Part shown: positions 51,528-56,433 of the stretch, piece by piece
Numbering within the stretch: the stretch's first letter is position 1
Layout: every line of letters begins with the position of its first letter
DNA from: Cladosporium halotolerans
Lineage: Eukaryota
Reading direction: 5' to 3'
Length of the DNA: 64,000 bases
Assembly: GCF_011745625.1 (NCBI RefSeq)
Contig: NW_027191478.1
Span: 186,001-250,000 of the forward strand
Notes under the pieces: model-generated
Database searches by the model: none
Told to the model about the DNA's origin: nothing
The model's input: the letters and a program-made list of their open reading frames with translations, nothing else
Position numbers and translations under genes: made by a program

Positions 51528-54500
51528 TCACGTGAACACCACGCCCTTCCTCCCCAAAAAGCTCCCCAGCAACCCGTCCAGCTCGCCCATCATGCCCTCG
51601 AGCCCCTTGCGCTCCTGCTCGAACAAGCCGCGCATAGCCGGGTGCTCGGCGACCTGCTCGCGCTCGCCGTCGGCGTCGGCGTCGTGCGCGCTGTGCTGCA
51701 CGATGGAAAGCAGGTCTTTGACGTCGTCGGCGTCGAACCAGGCGCGCAGGTTCGCGTCGTCCCAGTGCGCTGCGCCGCCGTTGCCGGTTGGCTGCCGCGG
51801 GGAAGACGAGATGGGTGTGGAAGCTGTGGCGGGGGAGGAGCGGCCGTCGTCGGCGAAGGGGTCGGCGGTGGAGGGGAGGGAGTCGGGGGAGGGCGCGCTG
51901 CGGGTCGGGGGTTGGGGCGTTTGGGCGGTGGGGGTTGCGTCGCTGTCGGAGAGGTCTTTGGGTTTTGTTGTTGTTGTTGCGGAGTCGGGGCCTGAGGCTG
52001 CGGCGGCAGGGTCTGTGGGTTTCTCGATGAGGCTGGGGTCCGTGGAGGCGGATTTGTCGCCGTCGGTGTCGAGGGAGCCGGAGTCGTCGCCTTCTTCCTC
52101 TGAGTCGGAGTCTGAGGCGTTCATCTGCGGGATGTGCACGAGCTCGGTGCCGTGCATGAAAGTGCCTGCGCCGGGCGATTGGACTTGGACGGGGCTGGAG
52201 GAGAGGCGGTCGGAGTCTTGGCTGCCGTTGCGCGTGCGCTCTTCTTGCTCGAGGAAAGGGTTGGGGCCTTGCTCGTCTTCGTCGGGCGAGTCGAAGTCGT
52301 CGAGTTCGACGCGCTGCTTTGAGCGTTTGGCTTTCTTGGGTTTCGGGTCGCCCATGCTGTTGGATCTGAGCATGGCTGCGATCGGGGAGAGCGGACCGCT
52401 CTTTTCTTGGATGGGCGGCGGGATCTCCAGCTCGGTCGGTTTCGGGAGGTTCTCCTCGTCTCCAGTCGCCATTTCGTACGCTGTCTGCGAGCCTTCCAAT
52501 TCTGCAACAAAGCCATCGCCTGCCGGGGGTTGGTACTGTTGTGCCTGAGGGATTTGCTGAGGTTCGTCTTGAATGGGACTCATGATCCTGGAGTTATCAG
52601 TGGGCGGCGCCTTCTGCAGCTTGGCTCTGGCCTGGTTCCTGGTGTCCGCGGACGTCGGACTTGTCATCATCTGCTCGATGGGCGATACTGCGCCAGACGG
52701 ACCCGTGCTACTCTGTCCGCTGCGTGACATCTCAGCAGACACCTTCTCCATGTCGCTGAGCTCGCCCTCGTCCCTGCTGGCGGACTTCTTGTCCTTCTTC
52801 TTGCTCTTGAAGAGACCAGAGAGCATGCCGCCTTGCTTCTTGTCTGACTTCTTATCTTTCTTCTTCTCCTTGCTGTCTCTCTTGGTTCTCTCTTCTTGCG
52901 GAGAAGGAGTTTTGACAAGAGTTTCGAAGCTGTTATTATTGCGAGAGCTCTCCGTTGAGCTGCTTTTTGAGGCGGTGTCATCACGTAGCAGGCCGGGTGT
53001 AAGGGAGATCTTGCGGGTCTCAATGCTCTCATCCTTGAGGAAAGAGTCGGCATTGCGAGGCGTTCCTTTGCGTGATTTGAGTGGTGCAGCCTCTGTGGGG
53101 GATGATTAGTACCGGTCATGCGTAAAACATCGAGGATATTCAACGTACCTGAACGATCAACGAGCCTCGGGCTGAGTTGAGGGTCGTCGACGGATGATCG
53201 TTTACTGTCCATACTGGCTTTTCCACCGGCCGAATCAAAGGAACCCTTGCCACTGCCACCTATCGAGTCGCTGCTGAAGCGGCGTGTGGCGTGCACATTG
53301 GCTTCTTCCGGTGCATTACGCTCCTCAACCTCAGCTGGCTGGCCACGGTCGGACAGCTGTTCTTGCTGTTGAGGCTCCGTGGCGCCGGAGTAAGGATCGA
53401 TCATGCCATCCTCATCTTCCGTTGAATAGTCGTAGTCAGAAGCTTCGACGTAAGTGGGAGCAGCAAATTGAACTGTTTTCGCTGTTCGCCGGCGCATGGC
53501 TTTCTTGAGCGGGTTTCTTGTCTTCTCTGGGTTGTCACCAAGCATAGTTTGTGAGAGCTGTGAGAAGTCAGCGGGCAAATATCACCAGTCGAGGCTCAAG
53601 AGCAAACAAACGTCAATGTTGCGATGTTTGTTCAAGCGCGCCAAGCGCTCAGTGGGTGTCTCGATGTGTTCTGCAGGCAGGTAACCTAGTGTGACCATGT
53701 GAGCAGAAATTCGTGTTTGCTTGTCGAGTTGTACGCACCAATGCTGCTGTCTTTGACGACTCGGACGAGCCACCAATATGAATTGCTATCATCCAAAAGT
53801 ACCATTGTATCTCCCTTTGTGGCATTTGCTTGACCTTCGACAGTCGCAACGAACGTGTGCAATGCATAGACAAATTCGAAATCGATGTCCTCTGTTTCTT
53901 GTAAGCATTCGTCTTCCCAGCTGGAATCAATAAGACCATTATCATCATAAAAGAAAGTGTCTGCATCATCGTCTTGGATATTTAGTTTCGTGATAGGTTC
54001 AGAGAATCTGGTTTCGTTGGGAGGCCCATTGTCCGGATGTGACGATCGTGGAAAGCGGTCTTGTACTAGAGATCTTCGTGACTGCACATTGATCGCTCTT
54101 ACGTCGACAAAGTCGTGGCTTCGCATTGCCTCCTTGAAAGCAACGTCTTCTGCCTGTTGCTGAGCGAATGCATTTCCACGAACTTCATTCGGTGTCGCCA
54201 CCTGGTCAAGAGCCCGATCGCATGGCGAGTCGGCCAACACTTCCGACAGGTCCGTCGCACACTCAAAGTTTCCTTCAGAAGTTCCTCTCGTGTCCAGTAT
54301 CCAGTTCTTTCCAGTGTCATACTTACCCTTCAGACGATGATGCTCAGACGTTGCGGGAAAGAAACGACCAAAAGTTACTGGGGTAACCATTGGTGACGTT
54401 TCGGGTGTGCGAATAGAGGGCGACAGACTCTCCACCTGCGTGAGTTCCGGCAGTTCTTCGCTATGAGGATAGAGACTATCCAATCGCAAAGGTAAATGCC

Positions 54501-55008
54501 GCGGTATCTCAACAAAAGGCGAAGAGTTTGGGTCAGATGTGGGCGACTGGTTGAAAGTCGCCCGTTCATGATCGGCATGTTGAGGTGTACCATGTCCTTC
54601 CAAAGACATATTCGCAATCGCAAGGAGATGTTCTGCAGACGTACCATCTTCGATACTCGGGCTCGAGGACATGCGGTCCATCATGTCGTCGTCGTCGTCT
54701 CCGTCGGTGTCCTCCTCCGTCTCGCCGTTCGCAGTGTCCGTTCCGTCCGTCTTCTTCTCTGCAGCCTCGCCATTCGCCTGGCCATTGGTTGCTTGCCCTT
54801 CCACATTTTGTCCGGCCATGTTCCAAGCGTCGGCCAGGGTCTCTTCCTCCGAGCGGCGTTCCTCTTGTACGTGTTGGAATTGCGCGGCCTGGTGAGGCGC
54901 AATGGCGTCGGAGTCGGGGTGCTTGCTGTGTTCCGAGGCGGTGGGCGCGTCCTGGTCCTGCAGGTCGAGCGTGTCGGCGCGCACCATGTTGGGCCTGCCG
55001 ACAGCCAT
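51528..55008 (-). CDS. tea4: SH3-domain polarity protein, Tea4/TeaC/Bud14 family
   Basis: EDIDFEFVYALHTFVATVEGQ..LLDDSNSYWWLVRV..GYLPAEHIETPTERLARLN (SH3) and PP1-docking-like KTVQF. Introns near 53687-53740, 53560-53611 and 53094-53148, plus candidate 53892-54644. Confidence 0.88.
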
Positions 55009-55839
55009 GGCTCGCTAGGATATCGCTGTCGAGGGCGTTTCGGCTGGTCCGACCAAGGTCGCGCACGGGATGTCAGACTTCGCACGACGCAATTATGGTC
55101 TAGTCCAAGAATTGGTGAGACGGTTCAAGAGCGGGAGGATGGGCGTAGAGCGAAGGCAGAGCGATGCGACTTCGCGTGCCGCACGAGCGTCGCAGGGAGG
55201 CCGAGTTGGCGCACGGGGGAGTGGCTGGTCGCGCAGATAGCGGCAGCTGTTCGGCGGCAGTCGCTTCCAGCACGACGGCGCACGCGGTAGCCGGCTCGGT
55301 GTAGTAGGTGGTGCTGCGCGGTCGACAATGGATAGTCGGGGCGTAACGGTCGTAGACAACAGTGCGGTCACGGTGGGAGCAGACGACCGCCGGGGCTCTA
55401 CTCTCTCGCTCTTCAGGCCGGAAAGTCGCAAGGTGTGAGAGGTGCCCTCCTGTGTTTCACATCAAGGCCCGCACGCGCGCTAGCGCTTTTGGGGCCGGCA
55501 ATGCTGGCTGATCAAGGCTCGAGGGGCGGCGCGTGCCGCGTCTTCGGTCTACGGGTCCGCCCATTACCTTAATTGACCTTATTCACGTCCTTGCACATTG
55601 GATACCCTCCTCCCTCGCGTTGACACTGAATGCTTGACGAATGCGTCTAATGACATGACCTGTCGTCGGGCTATACAACCAGACCACCAACACATCATCT
55701 ACTCAACCGCCACGATTGATCTCACACGGTATTCTGTAGGTCTTGCACTAGCCGTTGCTGCCGGACCCTTTTCAACCGTTGGAGCAATTTCCCACACTGG
55801 ACGGGATGGCAATGGCTTAAAGCATCTTGAACGAGTGAG

Positions 55840-56433
55840 TTGAGGGTGCTGAAGACCCGGCTACCGAAACTCACTCCGTGGATTAGTCACCTGGCCAATA
55901 GCCACAACACGGAAGAGTTGCTCACCTTACCAGCAAGCGGACGCTTCGAAGGCTTTCGCATCAGCTATGACTCGCAATCCCCAATTTCAGTGAATGTCGT
56001 ATGCCCGATCTGTGGTCTGACACTTCAAGACTTTGAAGCTTTCAAGCAGCACTTCTGGACACGCCACCTTTGCTCCGAAGGAGAAGCAGAACACTTCCGA
56101 CATTGGTGCTCTACATTGGATCAGTATGTGCGCAAACCCATGAAAAGCGAGCGCAACAGACACTTACCCTGGGAAACAATGTCGAGTTGGTGGTTTCTGT
56201 GCAGCGCAATTGTAAAATGCCGATCATGCTCACTTTTGTCCGACCTCGAAACTCATCATCTCAGCCTTCTGCGACCGACCAAAGAGGTCATCGTTGAGCT
56301 CTTCCCATACCGCACGCAGATCGTCAGGCTTTACCCAGACTTTGCGAAGCACCCAGTCTTCGCAGACCTGGGCTGGAGACGTGGCGAGCACTACGACTTT
56401 GTCACGAGCCTCGCTTCCGCCAGCCTCTCGTAG
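55840..56433 (+). CDS. Hypothetical C2H2-like zinc-finger protein (5' end unresolved, possibly a pseudogene)
   Basis: CPICGLTLQDFEAFKQHFWTRH within a 197-codon frame that starts at TTG. No convincing ATG or splice join found. Confidence 0.4.
   Translation: MRVLKTRLPKLTPWISHLANSHNTEELLTLPASGRFEGFRISYDSQSPISVNVVCPICGLTLQDFEAFKQHFWTRHLCSEGEAEHFRHWCSTLDQYVRKPMKSERNRHLPWETMSSWWFLCSAIVKCRSCSLLSDLETHHLSLLRPTKEVIVELFPYRTQIVRLYPDFAKHPVFADLGWRRGEHYDFVTSLASASLS

Follow-up and report, generated by a model that had tools for sequence, protein, structure and literature searches.

We investigated a 64,000-nt stretch of Cladosporium halotolerans DNA (contig NW_027191478.1, positions 186,001 to 250,000; hereafter the window, position 1 being its first letter), and in it a 753-nt segment at 53892-54644 on the minus strand, which lies within a gene that, by its homology, is a Tea4/TeaC/Bud14 orthologue. 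The segment is probably an ancient, frame-preserving alternative intron, i.e. an exitron. Splicing occurs at exactly its borders, a read-through transcript form exists, and both the reading frame and the splice signals are conserved. Because frame and signals are doubly conserved, we infer that both protein forms are made, the retained form being translated, and that their ratio matters, i.e. is regulated and relevant to polarity. The initial annotation of this DNA had read the segment as a true intron that keeps the frame and may also stay in the transcript, and this reading is supported by junction contigs together with a comparison of 61 segment sequences.

In the arrangement proposed here, the spliceosome would remove 54644-53892 in frame at G/GTACGT...ACAG/ (the slash marks a splice site), and the N-terminal region would be joined directly to the SH3 domain in a protein of 854 amino acids (aa). 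When not removed, the segment would be read straight through as a 251-residue linker with conserved short motifs, giving 1105 aa; both lengths are those of the gene model. Across orthologues, splicing would delete a linker of 140-294 residues and leave the N-terminal region, the SH3 domain and a downstream KTVQF motif intact. The arrangement would be ancient, at least five Pezizomycotina classes keeping the coding capacity and the three splice signals together. Suboptimal signals would let the ratio of the two forms be set or regulated, and the region before the SH3 domain would be a plausible place for a switchable interaction module.

Borders of the segment and contigs that splice or retain it

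The borders given in the initial annotation are exact. The upstream exon part ends with ...ATC GAA GAT G/ at 54645, GTACGT starts at 54644, and the segment runs through GCTTAC..ACAG to 53892, i.e. 753 nt or 251 codons, the 3' border standing in the context ...GAA TGC TTA CAA GAA ACA G/AG GAC ATC GAT. The in-frame junction also holds, ...SSSPSIED being joined to EDIDFEF... at phase 1. The segment lies in the frame of a minus-strand open reading frame (ORF; 53686-55014), which is open from the ATG at 55008 through 53686. That this frame is stop-free beyond chance was confirmed from the base composition of the segment itself (P = 4.4e-6) and by shuffling, as none of 20,000 mononucleotide shuffles was stop-free, with a mean of 12.1 stops per shuffle; the two other frames of the segment hold 5 and 18 stops. 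The contrast in length with ordinary introns stands as well, with 753 nt compared to 53, 54 and 56 nt for the three other introns of the gene, as seen in RNA-type contigs.

The composition of the segment had been described as intron-like and of low complexity, rich in S/T-P. The drop in GC content at third codon positions (GC3) is real, with 0.30-0.57 in the segment compared to 0.60-0.93 upstream, but it is no intron mark, since the SH3 coding part shows 0.53 and 0.40. The overall GC content is 0.493 in the segment, 0.472, 0.500 and 0.464 in the short introns and 0.451 in the adjacent SH3 exon part. GC3 and GC content were rejected as intron marks, because the low values run on into the undoubted SH3 coding part. 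The description as low-complexity and S/T-P-rich was overstated, S, T and P together making up 63 of the 251 residues (25%).

Among 24 sequencing runs found, none recorded as RNA, the contigs of four (X1, X5, X6 and X22) were compared with the window over 52900-55200; X1 and X6 bear the label 'RNA?'. X1 contig 1 (2052 nt) is without all three short introns, with GT..AG borders, and X1 therefore behaves as RNA. A 59-nt contig of the same run, at a depth of 103.4, links 54645 to 53886 through five intervening letters, which correspond to 53887-53891 with two synonymous changes (GAG to GAA and GAC to GAT), so the X1 junction is exactly 54645^53891. An 812-nt contig of X1, at a depth of 14.1, reads without a gap through 53863-54674, with 41 differences to the window. 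The flanking X1 contigs stop exactly at 54645 (contig 4, at the edge of the upstream exon part) and at 53886, i.e. the assembly forks at the segment. In X6, which comes from another study and bears another organism label, a contig joins 53891^54645 and skips the 753 nt between GT..AG ends, with 52 letters on its shorter side, and a separate contig skips intron C. The RNA check that had been suggested thus gave the exact junction in contigs of two runs from two studies and a read-through contig of the whole segment in one of them. The X5 and X22 contigs cover the segment and have joints neither there nor at the short introns; they look like DNA of relatives.

Our own first reading, held at the outset with great confidence, was that of a plain coding exon with GT..AG ends present by chance, because relatives encode the segment and because the donor and branch sequences fall in codons of an invariant Gly and of an invariant Cys-Leu. 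It was dropped on the spliced contigs and on the invariance at synonymous sites described below. In its remaining form, it would make the junction contigs artefacts of template switching or assembly error. In its favour, the segment has no stop, has coding homologues and is treated as coding in the annotation of most relatives. However, the ends of the junction are canonical GT..AG, with 0-1 ambiguous letters and no repeat; contigs of two studies carry it and are also free of other introns of the gene; and it equals independent database products residue for residue and sits on signals under nucleotide-level selection. We consider an artefact extremely improbable.

Spliced products were sought among 1.84 billion representative proteins, searched with the 121 N-terminal residues of the window gene, which gave 119 matches. 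Both flanking motifs are present in 54 of these, 44 keeping the segment and 10 exhibiting the junction SSSPSI[DES]D-EDIDF (nine found by pattern and one by eye, with identities obtained by exact look-up). Sphaerulina musiva, Peltaster fructicola and Emericellopsis cladophorae each contribute a gene model to the junction representatives, and the members of two of these three clusters include Dothideomycetidae sp. 11243 and seven Penicillium entries. In the Penicillium and other spliced-type gene models, the segment may be either spliced or missing from the genome. The other junction products derive from contigs of assembled sequencing runs and from products labelled 'merc', which we take to be a marine metatranscriptome catalogue. 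One 'merc' product (P0244) shows 93% identity to the Hortaea werneckii protein P0100 over residues 1-122 and 98% over 407-783, and skips its residues 123-406 (284 residues) exactly at the conserved borders. This match indicates that the segment is present in the Hortaea genome and is removed from transcripts.

Two of the junction products show particular features. In the Sphaerulina musiva model (P0130) the junction reads ...SSPSIED-A-EDIDF, one residue longer than in the others; this extra residue would fit a tandem AAG CAG acceptor spliced at its first AG, comparable to the GAAGCAG/AG found in the DNA of locus L046. A 203-aa product from an assembled public run (P0122), with 71% identity to the window N-terminus, exhibits DRMSSSPSIED-EDIDFEF as predicted from the window and is also without intron A; after ...KHRNID it runs into unrelated residues, which would fit a retained intron B or a contig end within that intron. 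Additionally, shorter homologues (742-907 aa) were considered as spliced models and rejected, as they are N-terminally truncated and still contain the conserved island that precedes the SH3 domain.

Conservation of the reading frame and of the splice signals

Metagenome contigs scanned with an alignment of relatives (A1) yielded 80 loci, i.e. 81 sources with the window. Both flanking motifs are found in 75 of the 81, the other 6 being without the upstream motif; three of these six are open in frame to the contig start, three have an in-frame upstream stop (L029, L033 and L040), and all six still carry TGCTTAC..YAG. The closest named relatives of the loci belong to five Pezizomycotina classes (Dothideomycetes, Sordariomycetes, Leotiomycetes, Lecanoromycetes and Eurotiomycetes). 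When the cross-species check put forward in the initial annotation was run on the 61 distinct segment sequences, all 61 were multiples of 3, over lengths of 420-882 nt, and 57 were stop-free, the other two frames containing 8-24 and 0-9 stops.

All 23 relatives aligned in A1 encode a homologous segment at the same place. Within it, conserved islands are recognised in A1 as SSPF..P.HLPL, HH..GEY, an acidic run and DSGWGGECL, the last adjoining the SH3 domain. In this last island the Trp is present in 61/61 sequences, and the flanking Gly residues, present in 58-60 of the 61, use 3-4 codons, i.e. synonymous change is free there. The ratio of non-synonymous to synonymous substitution rates (dN/dS) in the segment interior is 0.18-0.64 (Nei-Gojobori method; 20 pairs with finite dS > 0.05), and a wrong-frame control, one base off, gave 0.90-1.07 with 4-5 stops. 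In the SH3 block dN is about 0 in all 26 pairs. Such purifying selection suggests that the retained segment is translated and under selection in most lineages.

The splice signals are kept in a different manner. Synonymous divergence is at or near saturation between most of the 61 sequences. The donor nevertheless spells G/GTRNGT, with G+1, T+2, R+3 and T+6 in all 61 and G+5 in 56. The Asp codon is GAT in 60/61 and the following Gly codon GGT in 61/61; the next codon, where it encodes Gly, is GGG in 36/36, and the codon after it always starts with T. The donor hexamers are GTGGGT (36 sequences), GTGCGT (16), GTAATT (3), GTGTGT (2), GTAAAT (2), GTACGT (1) and GTAGGT (1). At the branch-like site, Cys is TGC and Leu is TTA in 61/61, the next codon begins with C in 61/61, and in every one of the 61 the A of TGCTTAC is exactly 10 nt away from the intron end. 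At the acceptor, the Glu is preceded by an NYA codon in 61/61, giving YAG/, despite a varying residue (T 38, I 11, S 5, A 5, V 2).

Control columns do not behave in this way. In four SH3 columns with an invariant Leu, 4-6 codons occur and TTA fills 25 of 244 cells; columns with an invariant Gly have 3-4 codons, and the codons right after the acceptor vary freely (GAR, GAY, ATY, GAY). The background codon use in these genes is 9.3% for TTA, 28.8% for GGT, 11.1% for GGG, 63.6% for TGC and 45.3% for GAT. As the 61 sequences are related, exact p-values for the invariance of the signals would overstate the case. On this pattern of codon use, the donor, the branch-like site and the acceptor are conserved as nucleotides, and not for the amino acids that they encode.

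The signals were also compared with those of ordinary introns. The branch-like CTTAC is found in only 4 of 59 copies of intron A, the neighbouring short intron, whose CTNAY branch-like motifs lie 9-17 nt from the 3' end, one copy excepted. The pyrimidine fraction before the acceptor is 0.30 compared to 0.65-0.70, and GTGGGT and GTGCGT together account for 4 of 57 intron-A donors. By sequence, the splice signals of the segment look suboptimal, with a CTTAC branch, no pyrimidine tract, uncommon donors and a length 10-15 times that of the neighbours.

A recent, lineage-specific intronization, with the segment a plain exon outside this clade, would agree with 114 of 120 homologous gene models encoding the segment and none of the 120 showing the spliced junction, and with the donor hexamer of the window, GTACGT, being unique among the 61. 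Against it stand the three signals fixed at synonymous sites in 61/61 sequences from five classes, and the spliced-junction products in distant genera together with the Hortaea-like transcript products. We regard a recent origin as very unlikely.

Counter-evidence and constraint in the window's own lineage

Several observations weigh against an alternative intron with two functional products. The first is that most annotated models keep the segment (114/120 of the homologous gene models; 44/54 of the representatives with both motifs); this majority weighs little either way, because ab initio callers favour long ORFs. The labels of X1 and X6 carry a question mark, and both consist of contigs, so depth is no measure of RNA level; the X1 depths of 103.4 for the junction and 14.1 for the read-through give only a hint that the spliced form is commoner. 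The X1 read-through contig could be an unspliced precursor and not a mature mRNA. X1 yields no contig with the short introns retained, and, as contigs drop rare variants, this does not imply their absence.

An in-frame TAG occurs in 4 of the 61 sequences, which also counts against a coding segment. Loci L055, L058 and L061, which are nearest to Vermiconidia calcicola (and also L033, which is cut by the contig end), have one common in-frame TAG in the context TAG GAG, about 82 codons into the segment and without a counterpart in the window. Downstream of it the frame is open and constrained, the ratio of non-synonymous to synonymous differences per site (pN/pS) being 0.37-0.44 over 165-178 codons compared to 0.90-1.07 in the wrong-frame control. 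An alternative acceptor at the common TAG/ was rejected, as it would leave 248 or 245 nt, out of frame; a nested short intron was rejected too, no in-frame GT codon being present in the 60 nt upstream (L058 and L061, inspected by hand). Stop read-through could possibly account for the TAG of these three loci. Locus L059 has a single TAG GAG at a different position. In L040 and L029 a stop lies just upstream of the expected SSSPSI position or in the 5' part of the segment, near the contig start; this could be due to a further intron, to chimerism of the contig or to truncation of the gene.

Further reservations concern the lineage of the window itself. Between the window and X1, 20 of the 41 differences in the segment and 20 of the 30 in the flanking exons were listed. 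Those in the segment comprise 8 synonymous and 12 non-synonymous changes, compared to 19 and 1 in the flanking exons (Fisher p = 4e-4), and the 8:12 ratio is no different from random change (about 27% synonymous; binomial p = 0.21). Three positions of the DSGWGGECL island that are Gly in at least 58 of the 61 sequences are S, E and D in the window. A contig of a close relative in X5 has lost a net 1 nt at 54514 within the retained frame, a deletion that would break the long isoform there unless compensated past the contig end. The dN/dS in the Cladosporium-like group is 0.35-0.64, above that of other groups. The linker thus looks weakly constrained, if at all, in the window's lineage, and the event may be drifting towards a plain intron in the Cladosporium-like clade.

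Two further observations were made on these contigs. In two other contigs of X5, paired +1/-1 changes lie a few bases apart (54472/54476 and 53991/53994). The divergence between the window and X1 is very uneven. The 5' untranslated region and the upstream exon part (GC3 up to 0.93) differ at 4 of 556 nt, the segment at 41 of 812 nt and the downstream exons at 30 of 823 nt, 19 of the 20 changes listed for these exons being synonymous.

These data bear most directly on a constitutive intron, ordinary except for being long and slowly removed, in which the read-through would be precursor and the frame would be kept so that leaky mRNA is harmless and escapes decay. The depth of the X1 junction, far above that of the read-through, would agree with this, as would X6, which gave the junction alone (its lack of a contig inside the segment is a coverage gap and carries no weight), the near-neutral 8:12 substitutions, the decayed island in the window and the 1-nt deletion in the close relative. 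However, amino-acid motifs in the segment are conserved with free synonymous change (the Trp in 61/61, SSPF..P.HLPL), dN/dS is below that of the wrong frame, where it is about 1, all 61 lengths are multiples of 3 over a range of 420-882 nt, and a merely harmless frame would not conserve residues. A constitutive intron is therefore considered unlikely, and a frame-preserving alternative intron remains our preferred interpretation.

Gene layout, comparison with known systems and meaning

The features of the gene are collected in Table 1. A search with residues 110-423 of the exon-1 translation retrieved 1076 homologous proteins (E <= 1e-3), with names such as 'Tip elongation aberrant protein Tea4', 'protein phosphatase regulator' and 'SH3 domain-containing protein', which are source labels and not assayed functions. 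The best homologue, from Cladosporium fusiforme, shows 53% identity over 98% of these residues. On the exon-1 translation, Pfam SH3_1 matched residues 382-417 (E = 2.4e-4) with 21.1 bits, under the cut-off of 22.9, because intron A splits the domain. The SH3 domain sits in the N-terminal half of the protein, directly after the segment, and forms a near-identical block in homologues, some of which have a precomputed PF00018 match. In the upstream exon part, D107, D108, D111, S114-I119 and D121 are invariant in alignment A1. Intron A measures 45-64 nt in 55 orthologous loci and is missing from 2. The KTVQF pattern lies outside the segment and is kept in both forms; we take it to match the RVxF consensus, which would make it a putative PP1-docking site.

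Table 1 Features of the Tea4/TeaC/Bud14-type gene and of its 753-nt segment, in window positions
Feature	Position	Strand	Remarks
Tea4/TeaC/Bud14-type gene	51528..55008	-	ATG at 55008, stop end at 51528; model built from sequence
Exon part 1a, conserved N-terminal region, residues 1-121	54645..55008	-	ends ...DDDMMDRMSSSPSIED plus the first base of the next codon
Probable frame-preserving alternative intron (exitron)	53892..54644	-	251-residue linker if retained; junction contigs in X1 and X6, read-through contig in X1
5' splice site GTACGT	54639..54644	-	codons GGT ACG T.. after GAT; used in X1 and X6
Island SSPF..P.HLPL, residues 162-174	54487..54525	-	P169 invariant; S162, S163, P164, H171, P173 and L174 at least 90% (A1)
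Island adjoining SH3, residues 361-369	53902..53928	-	consensus DSGWGGECL, window DSSWEDECL; 61 sequences
Branch-site-like TGCTTAC	53901..53907	-	codons TGC TTA C..; putative branch A at 53902
3' splice site CAG/	53892..53894	-	final two bases of one codon with the G of the following Glu codon; spliced here in X1 and X6
Exon part 1b, with EDIDFEF... and the greater part of the SH3 domain	53739..53891	-	residues invariant across relatives
Constitutive intron A, 53 nt	53686..53738	-	skipped in X1 contig 1
Constitutive intron B, 54 nt	53558..53611	-	skipped in X1 contig 1
KTVQF, RVxF-type PP1-docking pattern, downstream of SH3	53465..53479	-	read from sequence; columns nearly invariant in A1
Constitutive intron C, 56 nt	53093..53148	-	skipped in X1 and X6 contigs

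No Rfam match at E <= 1 was found within 53400-55400. An AlphaFold2 model of the Cladosporium fusiforme homologue (P0001), made with alignment A3, had a mean predicted local distance difference test score of 41 and left the SH3 domain itself unfolded, so that its low confidence over residues 113-369 is unusable as evidence of disorder. Upstream of the gene, on the opposite strand, an open frame of 200 codons (55831-56433, plus strand) contains a C..C...H...H spacing, which we take to resemble a C2H2 zinc finger; on the minus strand, a GTAAGT-type intron-like site is present at about 56150-56200.

Intron retention is the usual form of alternative splicing in fungi, and retained introns usually bring stops or frameshifts. 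To our knowledge, fungal alternative splicing that yields two conserved protein forms is rare. The Tea4 segment resembles fungal intron retention in that one intron is removed or kept in mature-looking transcripts, but differs from its usual form in keeping the frame and encoding conserved residues. Among the titles and abstract openings seen, none concerned a fungal exitron or the splicing of Tea4, TeaC or Bud14.

In Arabidopsis and human, exitron-containing transcripts are described as major isoforms (Marquez et al. 2015, PMC4484396). Like those exitrons, the Tea4 segment sits within a coding exon, flanked by coding sequence, uses canonical sites, has no stop and has a length divisible by 3; it exceeds ordinary introns in length, has seemingly weak signals and has a coding counterpart in orthologues, and its splicing removes a motif-bearing region that is probably disordered by composition. 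Unlike them, it is fungal, and its junction form is apparently commoner in X1, where depth does not measure level. The GC content of exitrons is above that of introns and below that of exons, whereas that of the Tea4 segment (0.493) is not above that of the neighbouring introns. Its conservation across classes with frozen synonymous sites may be a further difference from the Arabidopsis and human exitrons.

The layout of an N-terminal region, an SH3 domain and an RVxF-type PP1-docking motif is common to this gene and to S. cerevisiae Bud14, S. pombe Tea4 and A. nidulans TeaC. In Bud14, a formin-regulatory motif at aa 135-150 lies upstream of the SH3 domain at aa 262-318, and F379, downstream of the SH3 domain, is required for Glc7 binding (PMC8577847, PMC4803308). 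The Tea4 exitron would occupy the region before the SH3 domain, where Bud14 has its formin-regulatory motif.

A single event in a core polarity factor, with its frame and signals kept across five classes, would offer a testable model of protein-isoform splicing in fungi. The disagreement between public models (44 retained compared to 10 spliced representatives) would mark a real alternative event and not an error. Both isoforms are already public as rival gene models, and it is their interpretation that is apparently new. At the two borders of the segment, the importance of residues deduced from conservation would be misleading, the constraint there being on RNA: the invariant Gly after SSSPSI-D/E-D and the Cys-Leu before the SH3 domain would be conserved as the spelling of the donor and the branch site, and not for the protein. 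Synonymous changes in three codons should then abolish splicing and leave the protein unchanged, which would make isoform-locked alleles easy to build. More tentatively, and with somewhat less than even confidence, we propose that the segment may be among the oldest conserved exitrons known, predating the split of the five classes, that both isoforms may be functional, the linker of the long form possibly containing a counterpart of the Bud14 formin motif, and that their ratio may act as a post-transcriptional switch on the engagement of formin and PP1 by cell-end markers.

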